From: a virus
Taxonomy: Duplodnaviria; Heunggongvirae; Uroviricota; Caudoviricetes
Length of the DNA stretch: 30,236 nucleotides
IMG/VR virus record: IMGVR_UViG_2597489893_000002
Coordinates: 1-30,236 of that record
Direction: 5' to 3' (one strand)
In this document: positions 14,345 through 30,236 of the stretch, piece by piece
Position numbering within the stretch: the first letter of the stretch is position 1
Layout: each line of letters opens with the position of its first letter
The notes under the pieces: generated by a model
What the model saw: the letters and a program-made list of their open reading frames with translations, nothing else
Told to the model about the DNA's origin: nothing
Databases searched by the model: none
Program-made: the position numbers and the translations under genes

Positions 14345-17217
14345 ATACCCAAAACGTCATGAGCTACACCTCGAGTGTCCCCCTTACAAGACACAGAACG
14401 TCTGGCAAAAAGAGGTTCCACTCTGAAGCCACTGTCATGATAAAGCTCTCTGATGTTTGGCGCGCCACTGTTAGTAATGAGAACCTTTGCACCTCGACGA
14501 TGAGCATCCGTCAACAGAGACACCAGGCGTTTTTGCTCTTCAAACTTAAAGTCATGACCGGAATAGTTCGTGAATCCCTCTGTATTTGGAAGCGGTTCAT
14601 ACGGCGGATCGCAAAAGATGACATCTCCTTCTCCGGCAGCTTCAATCACCGCTGCAAAATCACCGCATACAAACTCAGACCGCCCTTCCGCACCGAGGAA
14701 GGCTTCCATCTCCTGTAATGGGAAATACGGAGTTTTATACTTCCCATAACCGACATTGAACTCACCGGCCTGGTTGTAACGCGTCAATCCGTTAAAACAA
14801 TGTCGGTTCAGGAACAAAAACGCCGCTGCGCGATGTAAATCATCATAGACTTGTTTGTTAAACGCATTCCGTACTGCCAGGTATCCTTCCTGTGTGTTGT
14901 AGTCCTGGAAGAAACGATGTGCCAGAGTGATAAGTGAATGCGCCTCGCGTTGCAGAGTCTTGTAAAAGTTAATCAGGTCAGCATTCACATCATTTAGCAG
15001 ATTTTCCTGGTATCCGGCATTCATGAAGACAGCTCCGCCACCAACGAAAGGTTCAATCAGGCGCTTCCCTTCTGGCAAATAGCGAAAGATTTGTTCCAGA
15101 ACACCAAATTTTCCACCAGCCCATTTGAATATGGACCGTTCGAATTCTGCCGCTGGTTTAACTTTTCGCTCTTTTGTTTCACTTCCTTCTTTCTGCCGAC
15201 ATACGGCCTTAGTAATCCGATCGCCAATCCAGCGCATTACTGGTATTGCCATACTATTGCCGATCGCTTTGTAACGCGGTCCGTCAGCTGCAAGCATCGC
15301 GGCCTCTTCTTCGCTTAAATCAGGATAGTTATTGCGAAGGTATGCCAGTTCATCTGAAGAAACTTTTTTACGCTTTTCCGTAGGGATCAACGTATGCCCA
15401 TCAGGAAAACCTTGCAGCCTTTCACATTCGACAGGGGTAAGACGGCGTATTCTACCGTCGCCGAGCAATACAATTGGTGCTTCATGGTTACATGTTAAAG
15501 TTGGTGCCGAATTATCGGTTTTTATCTCAGCCCCTCCTTGCCCATGTGCCATGGCAACTATGTTTGTATCATCGCAAGATCTGATAGCGATGTTTGAAGT
15601 ATATCTGGTAGTTTCCTTCCCCTCGCCTCTGCTCGGCGCAATATCCCGGCGCACGCCTTCGAACTCAAAAAGTACCGTTGCGGGATCGAGGTCTGTTCGA
15701 GCACTTGCGACAACAAACACGCGTCGGCGTCGTTGTGCCACTCCGAAGTATTGGGCATCAAGGATTCTCCAGGCCACCTTTCGCTGCGGCCCATAAATAC
15801 AACCACACTGCGGCCACTTTGGAGCATGGCAACCGGTTTTGCCATCCCACCGCCAGAACGCGTTACTTTTTCCTGATTCAGGTCGATCACCTGGTTCAAA
15901 TGGCGCATCTTCTCCAGCCAATCCGGCAAGGAAACATCCGAAGGCGTTATCTGCCGATGACAAGACTCCTGGGACATTTTCCCAGACAATAACGGCTGGT
16001 TTGAGAAATGACTCAGCCCGTTTGTCGTCAATTGCATTTGCAAGCTCCACATACTTTAAAGTTAGCGCGCCACGCTCATCATCAAGCCCACCACGTAATC
16101 CCGCGATACTGAATGCCTGACAGTTATGGACCACCGCACCATTGAGGATATAGGAATGATCACCTTCGACTTCTATGTTGTATACAGTATCTAGGCCTAC
16201 CGATTTAAACTCTTTGACTGTTCGTAAAAGCATTCCATGAGCCAATCTTGATTTACGTGACAATTTCTGCGGGCAGATTGTTACCTGATAATAATTCCGT
16301 TGATTTACCACGCGATCCTCGATCACTTTTTTGGGCTCAACTTCAATAAAGCTGACCGAAGAAACATAACCACAAGTCTGTGACAACCCCGCAACGCCCC
16401 AAGCAAGCGCAGGACTAACACTATTAATTCTAAATCCCGCTTTACCACTTGGTGTCCCATCAGTATCAAGATAGCCTTGTAAAAACACATGACGCAATGG
16501 ATGCGACATCACCCATGCAGGGATACGCTTAGCATGGCTTAACTCGCCAAAATGTTCATTAAGCCAATTGGCATAACACGTATCATTCAAGGTTACTTTG
16601 ATGCTCCCTCGGATTTCGCTTGCCACGGAAAATATGTTTTCTGGTATGCGGCAATGAAACTTTCTCAATTTCTGGCAATTTATGCCAAAAACAACCGCCT
16701 TCTTAGATTTACCTCTCCATCTCCTAATATATCCATCGCCAACATAAGCGCCCGCAAGATACATAGCCTGTTCTTCAGACAAGAACCGAGAACAAATATC
16801 TGGAGATGCAATATTGAAATTAGTTAGAGCGCACCATTGATATCCCGGCATATCACATGCTGCTCGCCATTCCGGTTCAGACAACAACTCTCTCTTAAAA
16901 TATGTGCCATTTTTCCGGGTGTTTTGGGCTTTCCACCGAACAGCCAGGAAGGGATGGTCATTGGTTGTTCTTATACCTAAAGGCTGCCCAACGGCATTAA
17001 GTAACCCCGTATTAGCTATTTTTGAACCAACTCTTTTTACTTGTTGTAACCGCCCGAGATGACTGACTACGTAATCGCCAGGGCAAACATCTTCTATTGG
17101 TTTATAACCATTTTTACAAAGAACCATATGCCCCGCGGTAAAACATGGTGTTCCCCCGACGAGCACGTCAGGGGATTCGATTTCCCCAGCCAAGACTTTT
17201 TTGGCAAGTTTTGTCAT
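14335..17217 (-). CDS. dmt: DNA methyltransferase, fused C5-cytosine MTase (intein-containing) plus Dam-type N6-adenine MTase; main ORF lacking motif I
   Basis: After the intein: CQAFSIAG (motif IV with upstream GGTP), ENVPGV (VI), QRRRRVFVV (VIII), RRLTPVECERLQGFPD (IX), KAIGNSMAIPV (X). C-terminal 270 aa is Dam-like (FKWAGGK, EPFVGGGAVF, DPPY). The ORF begins only 24 codons before PC; motif I is in the upstream fragment. Confidence 0.85.
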   Translation of the reverse strand: MTKLAKKVLAGEIESPDVLVGGTPCFTAGHMVLCKNGYKPIEDVCPGDYVVSHLGRLQQVKRVGSKIANTGLLNAVGQPLGIRTTNDHPFLAVRWKAQNTRKNGTYFKRELLSEPEWRAACDMPGYQWCALTNFNIASPDICSRFLSEEQAMYLAGAYVGDGYIRRWRGKSKKAVVFGINCQKLRKFHCRIPENIFSVASEIRGSIKVTLNDTCYANWLNEHFGELSHAKRIPAWVMSHPLRHVFLQGYLDTDGTPSGKAGFRINSVSPALAWGVAGLSQTCGYVSSVSFIEVEPKKVIEDRVVNQRNYYQVTICPQKLSRKSRLAHGMLLRTVKEFKSVGLDTVYNIEVEGDHSYILNGAVVHNCQAFSIAGLRGGLDDERGALTLKYVELANAIDDKRAESFLKPAVIVWENVPGVLSSADNAFGCFLAGLAGEDAPFEPGDRPESGKSNAFWRWDGKTGCHAPKWPQCGCIYGPQRKVAWRILDAQYFGVAQRRRRVFVVASARTDLDPATVLFEFEGVRRDIAPSRGEGKETTRYTSNIAIRSCDDTNIVAMAHGQGGAEIKTDNSAPTLTCNHEAPIVLLGDGRIRRLTPVECERLQGFPDGHTLIPTEKRKKVSSDELAYLRNNYPDLSEEEAAMLAADGPRYKAIGNSMAIPVMRWIGDRITKAVCRQKEGSETKERKVKPAAEFERSIFKWAGGKFGVLEQIFRYLPEGKRLIEPFVGGGAVFMNAGYQENLLNDVNADLINFYKTLQREAHSLITLAHRFFQDYNTQEGYLAVRNAFNKQVYDDLHRAAAFLFLNRHCFNGLTRYNQAGEFNVGYGKYKTPYFPLQEMEAFLGAEGRSEFVCGDFAAVIEAAGEGDVIFCDPPYEPLPNTEGFTNYSGHDFKFEEQKRLVSLLTDAHRRGAKVLITNSGAPNIRELYHDSGFRVEPLFARRSVSCKGDTRGVAHDVLGILL
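16123..17145 (-). other. intein with LAGLIDADG homing-endonuclease domain, 341 aa, in frame within dmt
   Basis: Starts with Cys (CFTAGHMVL, block A), block B IRTTNDHPFL, two LAGLIDADG motifs (YLAGAYVGDGY, FLQGYLDTDGT), block F/G VYNIEVEGDHSYILNGAVVHN followed by Cys+1. Removal restores GGTP-CQAFSIAG. Confidence 0.85.
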
Positions 17218-17227
17218 TTCGCCCCGC

Positions 17228-17255
17228 GGGGGGGGGGGGGGGGGGCGGGGGGGGG
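17228..17255. repeat. G18-C-G9 homopolymer tract interrupting the dmt coding sequence
   Basis: Read directly from the sequence. On the coding strand it is a C-run that would encode poly-Pro. Frames on either side are offset so motif I and motif IV are not in one frame. Confidence 0.95.
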
Positions 17256-17390
17256 CCAGCGGAGCGCAAGAACGGCCGATGGAAAAGGCTCGATTTCAGC
17301 AAACCAAACCGGACGCATACCCAACGGTTCCCAGGCAATACTCGCGGCTTCAATTCCACTGCAAACAGATCCATAGCACAGCTCTTTCAC
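17256..17390 (-). CDS. dmt: 5-prime fragment of dmt carrying C5-MTase motif I
   Basis: GTG start overlapping the RdgC-homologue stop (GTGA). Translation [45 protein letters not shown] matches the motif I region of a C5-MTase subfamily as remembered; the frame is lost in the poly-G tract. Confidence 0.6.
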
Positions 17391-18292
17391 TGCTTAGCCT
17401 CTCCACCAAGGGCATTTACCAGAGCATCAACCAGGCACGAAATTTCACTGGTCAATAGGAAGAAATCTGCGTCCAGTCGCTGCGCAACATCTTCACTATC
17501 AATATCAGAGTTCTGCTCAAGCAATTCATCCGCAAAATTGACGCTGGTAATGCTGAAGTTATGGTCCAGTGTAAATTTAATGCGGTTCTGCCAGTCGAGT
17601 GCCAACTTAGTGACGAGCTTGCCAGCTTCCAGGTGTGTGGAAATTTCATCGCTTCCCAAATCCTGCTTTTTCACTCGGGCGATACCGCCATCCTCAAGCA
17701 CTGCCTTAAGTTCTGCCGCATCCCCCATTTGAAATCCCTGTGGAGCACTAGCATCACGTACCCAGTCGGTCAGCGTTAACTCAATGGGATTTTCAACACT
17801 TAGTGGCACAACAGGAAGAGAACCCAGAGACTTACGCATAAGCGCGAGCATATCCTCTGCCTGCCGCGCGCTGGCATTGATATAGATACGTTTAGTTGAA
17901 CCGTCGTAGATCGCCTGGATAACAGAAAACTTTGAAAAAGCCCGTGGCAGAAGAGAATGCAGAACTTCGTCTTTCAGGGAGTCCTTCTCTGTTTTCTTCA
18001 GTTTACGCGCTTGTTCTTGCTCAAGTTTTTCAATTTTTTCTTGAATAGCTCGCTGGATAACCGGCGGGGGAAGAATTTTTGTTTCGCGCTTTGCTTCAAC
18101 AAGGATAAAACCATTTCCATGCATAGCGATAACTTCGGAATTATCACCAAATGGCGATACAAAACCGAACTTGGCCATATCCTGACTACCGCATGGCGTG
18201 AAAAGGATCATTTTCTTTTTATCTTCTAAGTCGGTCAGATCCGCCTCACGAGAAAGTTTATAAATAGTAATATTTTTCCAGTGCTTAAACAT
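17387..18292 (-). CDS. hrdC: RdgC-family recombination-associated protein, 302 aa
   Basis: High similarity by eye to E. coli RdgC along its length ([13 protein letters not shown]..., [44 protein letters not shown]). Start taken at the internal ATG ([13 protein letters not shown]) rather than the track start at 18406. Confidence 0.88.
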
Positions 18293-26630: not shown

Positions 26631-28220
26631 ATGTCTCAATATTCAATTCAACAGTCATTAGGTAATGCATCCGGCGTCGCGGTTAGCCCGATCAATGCCG
26701 ATGCGACGTTATCTACCGGTGTTGCATTAAATAGCAGCTTATGGGCTGGTATTGGCGTATTTGCGCGTGGCAAGCCGTTTACTGTTCTTGCGGTTACTGA
26801 GTCCAATTACGAAGATGTTCTCGGCGAACCGCTGAAGCCGTCTTCCGGCTCACAGTTCGAACCAATTCGCCATGTATACGAAGCTATTCAGCAAACGTCT
26901 GGTTATGTTGTTCGCGCTGTTCCGGATGATGCGAAGTTCCCGATTATTATGTTCGATGAATCAGGCGAACCGGCTTACAGTGCGTTGCCATACGGTTCTG
27001 AAATTGAACTTGATAGTGGCGAAGCCTTTGCTATCTACGTTGATGATGGTGATCCGTGTATTTCACCTACCCGTGAGTTAACCATCGAAACGGCAACAGC
27101 GGACAGCGCGGGTAATGAACGCTTCCTCTTAAAACTGACCCAGACGACTTCGCTCGGCGTGGTAACGACCCTGGAGACACACACTGTGTCTTTGGCGGAA
27201 GAAGCGAAAGATGACATGGGCCGCTTGTGTTATCTGCCTACGGCTCTGGAAGCCCGTTCTAAATATCTGCGCGCGGTTGTTAATGAAGAGCTGATTTCGA
27301 CAGCGAAAGTAACAAACAAAAAATCGTTGGCGTTCACTGGCGGTACCAACGGCGATCAGTCGAAAATCTCAACCGCTGCGTACCTGCGTGCGGTTAAAGT
27401 GCTGAATAATGCGCCGTACATGTACACCGCTGTTCTTGGCCTGGGCTGCTATGACAATGCGGCTATCACCGCATTAGGTAAAATCTGTGCAGATCGCCTG
27501 ATTGATGGCTTCTTTGATGTCAAACCGACATTGACGTACACGGAAGCGATCTCTGCTGTTGAAGATACCGGTTTACTTGGTACCGATTATGTAAGCTGTG
27601 CTGTCTATCACTACCCGTTCTCCTGCAAAGACAAATGGACCCAATCCCGTGTGGTCTTTGGTCTGTCTGGCGTGGCGTATGCGGCGAAAGCTCGTGGCGT
27701 CAAGAAAAACTCTGATGTCGGCGGTTGGCATTACTCACCGGCTGGTGAAGAACGTGCCGTCATTGCTCGTGCGTCAATTCAACCGCTGTATCCGGAAGAT
27801 ACCCCGGACGAAGAAGCAATGGTCAAGGGCCGTCTCAATAAAGTATCTGTTGGCACCTCTGGCCAGATGATCATCGACGATGCTTTAACTTGCTGCACGC
27901 AGGATAACTATCTGCACTTCCAGCACGTCCCATCCCTGATGAATGCAATCAGCCGTTTCTTTGTCCAGTTAGCCCGACAGATGAAGCATAGCCCGGACGG
28001 TATTACTGCGGCTGGCCTGACTAAAGGGATGACCAAACTTTTAGATCGCTTTGTCGCCTCCGGCGCTCTGGTGGCTCCTCGTGATCCTGATGCTGACGGT
28101 ACAGAACCGTATGTGCTGAAAGTTACGCAGGCGGAATTCGATAAATGGGAAGTAGTCTGGGCCTGCTGCCCGACTGGCGTAGCCCGTCGTATCCAGGGCG
28201 TACCGCTGCTTATTAAGTAA
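26631..28220 (+). CDS. contractile tail sheath protein, 529 aa
   Basis: N-terminal region (VSPINADATLSTGVALNSSLWAGIGVFARGKPFTVLAVTESNYEDVLGEP) resembles the T4 gp18 N-terminus pattern; size typical of sheath proteins. Position corresponds to P1 gene 22. Confidence 0.65.
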   Translation: MSQYSIQQSLGNASGVAVSPINADATLSTGVALNSSLWAGIGVFARGKPFTVLAVTESNYEDVLGEPLKPSSGSQFEPIRHVYEAIQQTSGYVVRAVPDDAKFPIIMFDESGEPAYSALPYGSEIELDSGEAFAIYVDDGDPCISPTRELTIETATADSAGNERFLLKLTQTTSLGVVTTLETHTVSLAEEAKDDMGRLCYLPTALEARSKYLRAVVNEELISTAKVTNKKSLAFTGGTNGDQSKISTAAYLRAVKVLNNAPYMYTAVLGLGCYDNAAITALGKICADRLIDGFFDVKPTLTYTEAISAVEDTGLLGTDYVSCAVYHYPFSCKDKWTQSRVVFGLSGVAYAAKARGVKKNSDVGGWHYSPAGEERAVIARASIQPLYPEDTPDEEAMVKGRLNKVSVGTSGQMIIDDALTCCTQDNYLHFQHVPSLMNAISRFFVQLARQMKHSPDGITAAGLTKGMTKLLDRFVASGALVAPRDPDADGTEPYVLKVTQAEFDKWEVVWACCPTGVARRIQGVPLLIK

Positions 28221-28229
28221 GGGAATACA

Positions 28230-29045
28230 ATGAGCAAAAACTTTTTTCAATCCGGGGCATTTTTGGGGAATGGACTGTCTCGTTTCGCTTTGAACTCTGA
28301 TCCTGTGCAGCTGATGGAGTCTGCCCGAGCAAGCGCTGAACCGCCAACAGATCCGGTTATTAATAATAATCCGGAACCGGCGGCACAGACTAACGATAAC
28401 GTTCCATCTGCCCAGGCTCCTGAGCAAATCCTGGAAGGGAAAGACGGTAAAGAATGGACCGTCGAACAGGCGCACCAGATGATTCTGGAAGCTGCAAATC
28501 GAAGTGCTATGCAAAATGCGTTGAGTGATGCGGCCGACGCCGTTTTCGCCTGGGCTGATAGCGGTGATCTGACTTTCGACTCCCTTGATGGTTTCGTTCA
28601 GGCTATCGCTGGTATCTCTGATGACGACGACTCCGAAGTTACAGAAGAACAGGACGATGCCTATAACGAAGCATGGGCAAATGTTGCTGACTTCCTCGCA
28701 GCATGCGGTGTAGATGATGACCTGATCGAAGCACTGGCTGACGATGAAGACGACGACGCAGCTGCTGATGTTGGTGCCTCTATCGCTGGTTTAGATAGCG
28801 ACGACCGCGACGAACTGGAAGCGGCGTTTGTTGTTGCTGGCACTTCTGATGAAATGCTGACTGAAGCATTTAAGAAGGTTGTTCGTAACGGTGAGATCAA
28901 ACTCATCCGTAAACGCCTGCGTAAAAAACGTCTGACTGCGGCTCAAAAATCGGCGCTGAAAAAAGCGCGTCGAAAAGCCCAGACCGGCGCGGCAAAACTT
29001 GCCCGCAAAAAGTCAATGAAACTGCGCCGTAAGCGCCTTGGCTAA
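28230..29045 (+). CDS. hypothetical protein, acidic body with Lys/Arg-rich C-terminal tail, 271 aa
   Basis: RBS AAGGGA before ATG. Asp/Glu-rich central region (DDDDSEVTEEQDD, DDEDDDAAAD), last 45 residues highly basic. Confidence 0.6.
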   Translation: MSKNFFQSGAFLGNGLSRFALNSDPVQLMESARASAEPPTDPVINNNPEPAAQTNDNVPSAQAPEQILEGKDGKEWTVEQAHQMILEAANRSAMQNALSDAADAVFAWADSGDLTFDSLDGFVQAIAGISDDDDSEVTEEQDDAYNEAWANVADFLAACGVDDDLIEALADDEDDDAAADVGASIAGLDSDDRDELEAAFVVAGTSDEMLTEAFKKVVRNGEIKLIRKRLRKKRLTAAQKSALKKARRKAQTGAAKLARKKSMKLRRKRLG

Positions 29046-29052
29046 AGGAGGA

Positions 29053-29074
29053 GGCCGGAGAACTCCGGCCTTTA
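29053..29074 (+). terminator. intrinsic terminator or attenuator hairpin
   Basis: Stem ggccggag / ctccggcc followed by TTT; sits between two same-strand structural genes. Confidence 0.45.
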
Positions 29075-29080
29075 ACTTGA

Positions 29081-29662
29081 ATGGCACCTATTCCTTATGG
29101 GGTTTACAGCCAGGCTGACGGTGTATCGCCATATCTGAAAGTTACTTTAACGAACTCTCAGTACCAGGTTACCGGATATATCAGCCAGGGAGCGGCAATG
29201 AACATGGCCCAGAATTGGGAAGCGCCGTTTACCGGTATGTCCATGGGATCTGTTGCTGGTGCCTTCAGTGGTTTTGCGCAGGTTGGTACTGAAACAACGT
29301 CGGTTGCCCGTTGGAACAGCTTAATGGTTTGGGAAGGGGGAACACCGCCGACTTTCACGCTGCCAGTAACTTTCATCGCTTTGTTTGACCCATTCACGGA
29401 GGTTTCAGGAGCTATCGCCGCATTGTCAGCGATGATTAGCCCGGAACTTAAAGATGCCAGTATTGGTGGTCGAATCCCGGAGCGTGTGACGCTAAACATT
29501 GGTCGCCGGATCAACATCATTGATGTCGCTATCCAGGACATAAGTTTCGATCTCGATGCGCCCAGGGACAGCAATGGACATTTCCTGAAAAACACCGTCA
29601 ACCTCCAGTTGACCGGTTCTTCGATATATAACAGCTCCGATATTGTTCGGGCGTTCCAGTAA
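29081..29662 (+). CDS. hypothetical virion-block protein, 193 aa
   Basis: Intact ORF in the late-gene block; weak RBS; no motif recognised. Confidence 0.55.
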   Translation: MAPIPYGVYSQADGVSPYLKVTLTNSQYQVTGYISQGAAMNMAQNWEAPFTGMSMGSVAGAFSGFAQVGTETTSVARWNSLMVWEGGTPPTFTLPVTFIALFDPFTEVSGAIAALSAMISPELKDASIGGRIPERVTLNIGRRINIIDVAIQDISFDLDAPRDSNGHFLKNTVNLQLTGSSIYNSSDIVRAFQ

Positions 29663-29673
29663 AAGGATTTTAT

Positions 29674-30183
29674 ATGGGGCACAATAACACTAAGGGAAAC
29701 CGTAAATTTATTAAGGGCCGCTATACTGCCAACGCGGCCAAAGGCGAACGACTGGTATCTTCTGAATTCCAGCTCACTTTTGCAGGCCATGAAGATATCA
29801 GCGTACTGGTTCGCACGTCGCAAATTCCTGAAATGACCCGCGAGGATGTGGAGGACTATGGTCCGAATGGTGTGAAGTTCAACCAGCACGGTCCAATTCG
29901 AAACTCTGGGGAAATCCAGGTCCAGTGCGTGGAGACTATCGAAGGCGATATTCTTCAGTTCATTAAAGATCGCATTGCGGCGAAGGACTATGTTGATATC
30001 ACGATGGCTGCTACCCCTGAATCCAAATCTTCCGGGGTTAACGCTGTGACAAAAGCTGCTACAACAATTGAAATGTTGGACTGCAAAATCTACAGTGATG
30101 CAATCGACTTTAGTACCGAAGATGTGACTGCCGCTGTGCGCCCGTCACTTCGTATCGTCTACAACTGGATTGAGTGGGATTAA
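29674..30183 (+). CDS. hypothetical virion-block protein, 169 aa
   Basis: RBS AAAGGA before ATG; size and context fit a small tail or head component, but no motif supports a specific call. Confidence 0.55.
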   Translation: MGHNNTKGNRKFIKGRYTANAAKGERLVSSEFQLTFAGHEDISVLVRTSQIPEMTREDVEDYGPNGVKFNQHGPIRNSGEIQVQCVETIEGDILQFIKDRIAAKDYVDITMAATPESKSSGVNAVTKAATTIEMLDCKIYSDAIDFSTEDVTAAVRPSLRIVYNWIEWD

Positions 30184-30236
30184 GAGTCATCCCTTGTATT
30201 TTAAAGGGCACTGTTGCAAATAGTCGGTGGTGATAA

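Follow-up and report, generated by a model that had tools for sequence, protein, structure and literature searches.

The G18-C-G9 tract that interrupts the methyltransferase gene dmt in contig AFYG01000045.1 is very probably a sequencing or assembly artefact, produced at a hairpin-forming palindrome and private to this contig. The real plasmid of Escherichia coli XH001 most likely carries the standard P1-family sequence, CCCCATGTCGCCAACCTTGGCGAC, at this site. An artefact is favoured because the tract is private to one draft assembly, because the sequences on both sides of it are identical to those of a relative, and because it coincides with the palindrome. It is on these same grounds that the initial annotation's preference for a miscalled stretch over a slippage-prone tract is upheld.

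The window analysed (the whole stretch of DNA, 30,236 nt) is the entire contig AFYG01000045.1 of assembly GCA_000224395.2. E. coli XH001 is an industrial L-threonine producer, and the AFYG01 draft genome is listed as published in J Bacteriol in 2011 (October-November).

The tract and the sequence that it replaces

Direct reading of the plus strand gives G18 at 17228-17245, C at 17246 and G9 at 17247-17255, exactly as initially annotated, in the context TTTTGTCAT TTCGCCCCGC G18 C G9 CCAGCGGAGCGC. No other homopolymer in the 30,236 nt of the window exceeds 8 nt. About 3e-7 runs of G18 are expected by chance on both strands of the window, and the tract cannot be of chance origin. The coordinates of the tract and of the features around it are listed in Table 1.

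The interval between CGCTGG and ATGACA is 38 nt in the window versus 24 nt in the relatives, a net gain of 14 nt; the proposal that the tract has about the length of the segment it replaces is therefore incorrect. In the relatives, the 24 nt between these two landmarks are CCCCATGTCGCCAACCTTGGCGAC, encoding RW-PHVANLGD-MTK. The terminal four G of the tract (17252-17255) are the genuine GGGG/CCCC of all relatives. The tract is a replacement of mixed sequence, and not a lengthened C4 run. The comparison with P1-family dmt alleles that had been suggested as a check gave a uniform answer: all relatives have an in-frame mixed linker of the CCCCATGTCGCCAACCTTGGCGAC type, with a single substitution in P7.

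Table 1. Features of the window at and around the G18-C-G9 tract
Feature	Position	Strand	Description
G18-C-G9 tract	17228..17255	+	coding (minus) strand of dmt reads C9-G-C18
Full anomalous segment	17218..17251		34 nt replacing the relatives' 20 nt GTCGCCAAGGTTGGCGACAT (+ strand)
dmt N-terminal fragment, 58 aa	17214..17390	-	as written; C5-MTase motif I (SVCSGIEA) and motif II (FAEIEP)
Main dmt ORF, 960 aa	14335..17217	-	as written; ATG at 17217, begins MTKLAKKVLAGE
Intein, 341 aa, LAGLIDADG homing-endonuclease domain	16123..17145	-	between Pro and catalytic Cys of motif IV
hrdC/rdgC-family gene, 301 aa (annotated form from ATG)	17387..18292	-	directly upstream of dmt, same operon

The dmt gene as deposited

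Judged by its sequence, the gene bearing the tract is the dmt of the P1 family, predicted to encode a bifunctional C5/N6-adenine DNA methyltransferase. It is encoded on the minus strand, so that in the coding sense the tract is a poly-C. Pfam assigns to it a C5-cytosine DNA_methylase domain, a C-terminal D12-class domain (MethyltransfD12, Dam-type), and the Hint and LAGLIDADG domains of an intein. The operon order is uhr-hrdC-dmt, as in the P1 family. The mechanical ORF of the hrdC/rdgC gene extends to 18406, and its stop, a TGA, overlaps the GTG at which dmt, and hence the 58-aa fragment, starts. The ORF from this GTG (17390..17214) was confirmed as initially described. As a separate observation, an IS3-family element with a 404-aa transposase is found between the rdgC/hrdC-like gene and dmt in the complete P1-like plasmid CP031351.1 (L088, positions 1906-3119), and the C-terminus of the rdgC/hrdC-like product is changed by this insertion (310 aa versus 301 aa).

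The tract occupies codons 46-58 of dmt. The 58-aa fragment begins with MKELCYGS, reaches LALRW, and then continues as PPPAPPPPPRGAK to a TGA stop. This stop and the ATG of the main ORF share the sequence ATGA, an overlap that arises because the Met codon of GDMTK precedes an A. The GTG and ATG starts are 173 nt apart and their frames differ by -1/+2, in agreement with the earlier reading that the two frames are offset by one nucleotide and that the gene is broken as written. The main ORF carries the C5-MTase motifs from IV onward (interrupted by the intein) and the C-terminal Dam-type N6-adenine MTase domain. It corresponds, with 100% identity, to residues 54-1013 of the Dmt of P1 OP279344 (UYD72463.1), a protein that is matched as well by the N-terminal fragment over residues 1-45.

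The intein, bounded as GGTP/CFTAGH...VVHN/CQAFS, matches Hint_2 and LAGLIDADG_3 in Pfam and, weakly, Intein_splicing. P1 OP279344 shares it, as do roughly 125-150 of about 500 P1-like plasmids; the reference P1 (AF234172) and P7 lack it. A literature search for an intein in P1 dmt found no paper. The intein is part of the gene context and lies outside the artefact.

Occurrence of the tract

The tract is absent from the 18 phage, 498 plasmid, and 493 E. coli genome records that cover the site. In the best matches among these records, 701 nt of the query are aligned to 687 nt, and none has the near-100% identity that is expected of a shared tract. In IMG/VR, all 76 P1-like contigs carry the reference 24-mer. 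Exact and relaxed patterns of the tract, as well as a pattern of at least seven C after CGCTGG, have no match in IMG/VR, in the GTDB species genomes (one genome per species, with little power for E. coli strains), or in the JGI metagenomes. At the protein level, a homology search with the 58-aa fragment in about 5.8 billion protein clusters detected no poly-Pro variant; the close N-terminal dmt fragments in these clusters all retain RWPHVANLGD, and the exact 58-aa fragment is not on record in a protein look-up. In the relatives examined, there is neither a precursor run beyond C4 nor any length variant.

Many other dmt alleles in the databases are broken at ordinary runs, either at an A6 (KLAKK; about 17187-17204 of the window) or at a G5 before motif IV. 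These frameshifted alleles yield fragments of 85-97 aa, some of them on contigs of 90-116 kb, and they may be either long-read homopolymer errors or real pseudogenes.

Over 30 kb, the window and P1 OP279344 show 232 differences. From 11.1 to 27 kb, the two sequences are identical except for 23 differences, all of which are located at 17218-17251, and the tract site is the sole indel in the whole 30-kb alignment. A second cluster of apparent indels, at 27548-27554, proved to consist of plain substitutions. The tract is flanked by 17 kb and 13 kb of correct sequence.

The blocks 1-11000 and 27000-30206 differ from OP279344, a laboratory P1, by about 1-2%, with the substitutions clustered, and the central 16 kb are identical, the tract aside. 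The plasmid is, on this pattern, a putative recombinational mosaic of P1-family lineages, because an identical 16-kb centre is set between flanks of 1-2% divergence. A recombination junction with P7 at the tract was considered and rejected. The apparent loss of homology to P7 reflects megablast stopping at the tract, and the linker of P7 is normal apart from its one substitution.

At the extremities of the contig, positions 1-30 and 30207-30236 are of non-P1 sequence. The terminal inverted-repeat end of IS26 makes up the last 30 nt, and the first 30 nt match the end adjoining an IS3-family (ISSen4-like) transposase in other plasmids. The presence of exactly 30 nt of an IS end at both termini suggests a k=31 de Bruijn short-read assembly that was broken at the IS copies of the plasmid.

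A palindrome at the tract site

The true sequence at the site is a 24-nt palindrome, CATGTCGCCAA-cc-TTGGCGACATG, the 11-nt arms of which are 100% complementary and separated by a 2-nt spacer. It is located within the coding sequence (codons HVANLGDM), at L001 4316-4339 (OP279344), equivalent to window positions 17215-17252. Folded as single-stranded DNA, it forms a hairpin of -11.7 kcal/mol (z = -4.7 relative to shuffled sequences), and it contains TGGCG, with the GGC motif, on both strands. The inverted repeat is identical in 76 of 76 IMG/VR P1-like contigs, and one arm has a mismatch (GCC to GCG) in P7. Scans with Rfam and for promoters and terminators around the tract returned nothing relevant.

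The anomaly extends from the second to the 21st base of the palindrome, and every difference from the relatives falls within the 24 nt. On the coding strand, the differences run from the A that follows CCCC to the C immediately 5' of ATG. Some of the original sequence can still be followed from both sides. Rightward on the plus strand, TCGCC is retained and AA has become CC. Leftward from CCAGCGG, the interrupting C occupies the position of the C of GGCGAC, and the interrupting C with the G9 has the same spacing from CCAGCGG as the reference C-GACATGGGG, in which A, C, A, and T have each been read as G. On both sides, the error met first repeats the base before it: T in place of G after CAT, and C in place of A after CCCC.

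Runs of miscalls that begin at specific positions, with a loss of usable coverage there, have been described in Illumina GA reads (Nakamura et al. 2011, PMC3141275). The triggers of these sequence-specific errors are inverted repeats and GGC, the inverted repeats acting in both directions, and the miscalled bases chiefly copy the previous one or two bases (PMC3141275). By the criteria of that study, a trigger is an inverted repeat of more than 8 bp, GGC, or both, situated where the miscalls set in (PMC3141275); at the tract site, both an 11-nt inverted repeat and GGC are present. The 11-bp inverted repeat, which had escaped the initial annotation, is the likely cause of the tract.

Other short-read assemblies at the palindrome

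Three Logan short-read contigs, from different P1-like plasmids, extend no further than 6, 2, and 0 nt upstream of the ATG at 17217 (SRR18937098_254, ERR10109266_92, and SRR25282076_145), that is, in the right arm of the palindrome. Two of them are long and differ from the window by 83-98 SNPs over 12.9 kb, and the third is 3.8 kb long with 3 differences. Two of the tips read GGCTAA/ATG and AA/ATG versus GGCGAC/ATG in the reference, and the C to A change at -1 is common to these tips and the window. A search for this variant before the ATG (AAATGACAAAAC) found none in IMG/VR; the change is therefore not a natural IMG/VR allele. One tip base (G to T in GGCTAA) copies no preceding base. Moreover, a noisy contig end from NCBI (L098) stops about 20 nt past the palindrome and also has A to C after CCCC.

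For three ends in a 7-nt window among thousands of P1-like assemblies, the rough chance expectation is a few tenths, which makes the enrichment modest, and the non-reference tip bases held in common render chance contig ends less likely. An IS insertion was also considered as the source of the Logan breaks and was ruled out, the tips being 0-6 nt long and not the k-1 nt of a repeat. These observations suggest that the palindrome may be a general hot spot of short-read error or coverage loss in the P1-family dmt.

A possible route to the artefact

If the tract is an artefact, it may have formed as follows. Reads that enter the hairpin from either side would lose register. Those of the coding strand, which leave CCCC for a C-rich arm (C at 10 of 18 bases), would tend toward C calls, and those of the opposite strand, in a G-rich arm that ends in G4, toward G calls; both kinds of call would appear as G on the plus strand. 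Correct k-mers would then be depleted on both sides, and the assembler, or a gap-filling step, might connect the degraded paths by way of the homopolymer, with the register arbitrary. Such a join would break the frame and leave the run 14 nt longer than it should be. Neither a clean G18 nor the additional 14 nt is explained by simple lagging-phase errors alone, and a strict de Bruijn assembler would require at least some reads with C-G18-C in them. The sequencing platform, together with the exact route of miscalling and joining at the tract, is inferred.

Effect of the tract on motif III

In an alignment to M.HhaI, E32 of dmt corresponds to E40 of M.HhaI (motif II), and the GD of NLGDMTK corresponds to G59-D60 of GDITQ (motif III), the Asp of which touches the cofactor in M.HhaI. 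By the same alignment, the replaced segment is located between motif II and motif IV. The initial annotation had described it as a short linker after motif I. The segment is more than a plain linker, as it includes the motif III Gly-Asp.

WP-x-V-x-NLGDMT is kept in homologues from Escherichia, Salmonella, Yersinia, Pseudomonas, and others. The codons lost to the tract are those for PHVANLGD, including the NLGD that is conserved family-wide. The sole nearby length that restores the frame (one additional C) converts PHVANLGD to PPPAPPPPPPRGE, which has no Leu-Gly-Asp (it reads RGE at this point). The C5-methyltransferase of an in-frame tract allele, the would-be ON state, is probably inactive or crippled, because the in-frame form is without the conserved Leu-Gly-Asp of motif III. 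A phase-variable tract is unlikely because these conserved residues are lost in every frame.

Alternative explanations

A real, non-adaptive, one-off lesion is improbable. It would be a deletion-insertion at the palindrome, in which 20 bp were exchanged for 34 bp of G:C-rich sequence and the C5-MTase part was inactivated; translation of the Dam-type domain might then continue from the internal ATG, given its overlap with the upstream stop (ATGA). In keeping with a lesion, the assembled consensus runs unbroken across the tract, XH001 is used for industrial production, palindromes are sites of instability in E. coli, and other dmt alleles in the databases are broken too, though at the ordinary A6 and G5 runs. 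However, palindrome instability usually takes the form of deletions, and no known mutational process of E. coli swaps a palindrome arm for an 18-nt homopolymer. The change is, moreover, the sole difference in 16 kb, and the way in which the retained C and G remain partly colinear with the reference, together with the C to A tip in unrelated assemblies, resembles base-calling trouble and not mutation.

It is highly improbable that the tract is a genuine hypermutable homopolymer, a contingency locus that switches the C5-cytosine methyltransferase half of Dmt. The tract does lie inside a DNA methyltransferase ORF, one added C restores the frame, and the overlap of the upstream stop with the downstream ATG could allow the Dam domain to remain expressed. 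Against this, the tract occurs in no other P1-family sequence examined and has no precursor beyond C4; it replaces mixed sequence and is accordingly not an expansion of C4; and zero divergence of the flanks speaks against an evolved locus. A functional length would also be expected of such a locus, but the in-frame form is predicted to be without the Leu-Gly-Asp of motif III. Very little credence is thus given to a tract physically present as a slippage-prone switch, from which the deposited frame would yield only the Dam-type half, by re-initiation, and the restored frame a full-length protein with a proline-rich insert. Were it true, homopolymer control of a methyltransferase would be seen for the first time in an enterobacterial phage-plasmid.

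The initial annotation had named two technical routes, the no-signal poly-G of two-colour chemistry (NextSeq/NovaSeq) and a homopolymer over-call in flow-based sequencing, and either is most unlikely to have given rise to the tract. The run is indeed G on the deposited strand, and dark cycles in two-colour chemistry are classically called as poly-G, but two-colour Illumina instruments were introduced after 2011 and AFYG01 was already listed as published in October-November 2011; in addition, dark-cycle poly-G belongs at the 3' ends of reads or at contig ends, and the tract is internal, with 13-17 kb of correct sequence on each side. A flow-based over-call is unlikely in that the true sequence is mixed (CCCCATGTCGCCAACCTTGGCGAC), with a true run of only C4/G4 and no pre-existing long homopolymer to over-call.

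Significance

With an artefact as the preferred explanation, the biological weight of the tract is small: dmt here is of the ordinary P1-family kind, and the DNA itself most likely does not carry the break. The consequences are chiefly for curation. From the contig as deposited, dmt could be taken for a pseudogene or a split gene; the break yields a spurious ORF of 58 aa and a truncated product of 960 aa, the latter now in protein collections. The analysis also flags a 24-nt palindrome in the P1-family dmt at which short-read assemblies may tend to fail, a caution that is useful for the calling of variants and pseudogenes in P1-like phage-plasmids of E. coli and Salmonella. In the unlikely event that the tract is real, it would be a contingency locus without precedent in enterobacterial phages.

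Comparison with known systems

Phase-variable methyltransferases (phasevarions) with simple-sequence repeats in mod or other MTase genes are found in Haemophilus, Neisseria, and Helicobacter. Contingency loci of this type are not known from enterobacterial phage-plasmids. The XH001 tract resembles them in being a long homopolymer in the coding sequence of a DNA methyltransferase with one length in frame. In phasevarions, however, the repeats are located in a tolerant N-terminal or linker region, whereas the XH001 tract displaces conserved catalytic residues; it also differs from them in its occurrence in a single assembly, with neither precursor nor length variants in relatives.

The Dmt of P1 (AF234172 annotation; OP279344, UYD72463.1) is the closest counterpart of the gene itself. 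The synteny uhr-hrdC-dmt is the same, and so are the 960 C-terminal residues (OP279344). In the window, as deposited, the gene is split by the tract.

The artefact is best compared with the sequence-specific errors of Illumina reads (Nakamura et al. 2011, Nucleic Acids Res 39:e90; PMC3141275). These errors were published as runs of substitutions with loss of coverage, whereas here there is a 28-nt homopolymer consensus with a gain of 14 nt; the XH001 case, for which the platform is inferred, requires the assumption of an extra assembly or gap-filling step. The trigger, an inverted repeat with GGC, is the same in both. The likeness extends to the start of the anomaly at the foot of the stem on both sides and to first miscalls that copy the preceding base, and the contig ends of unrelated short-read assemblies at the tract site may be a further instance of it.
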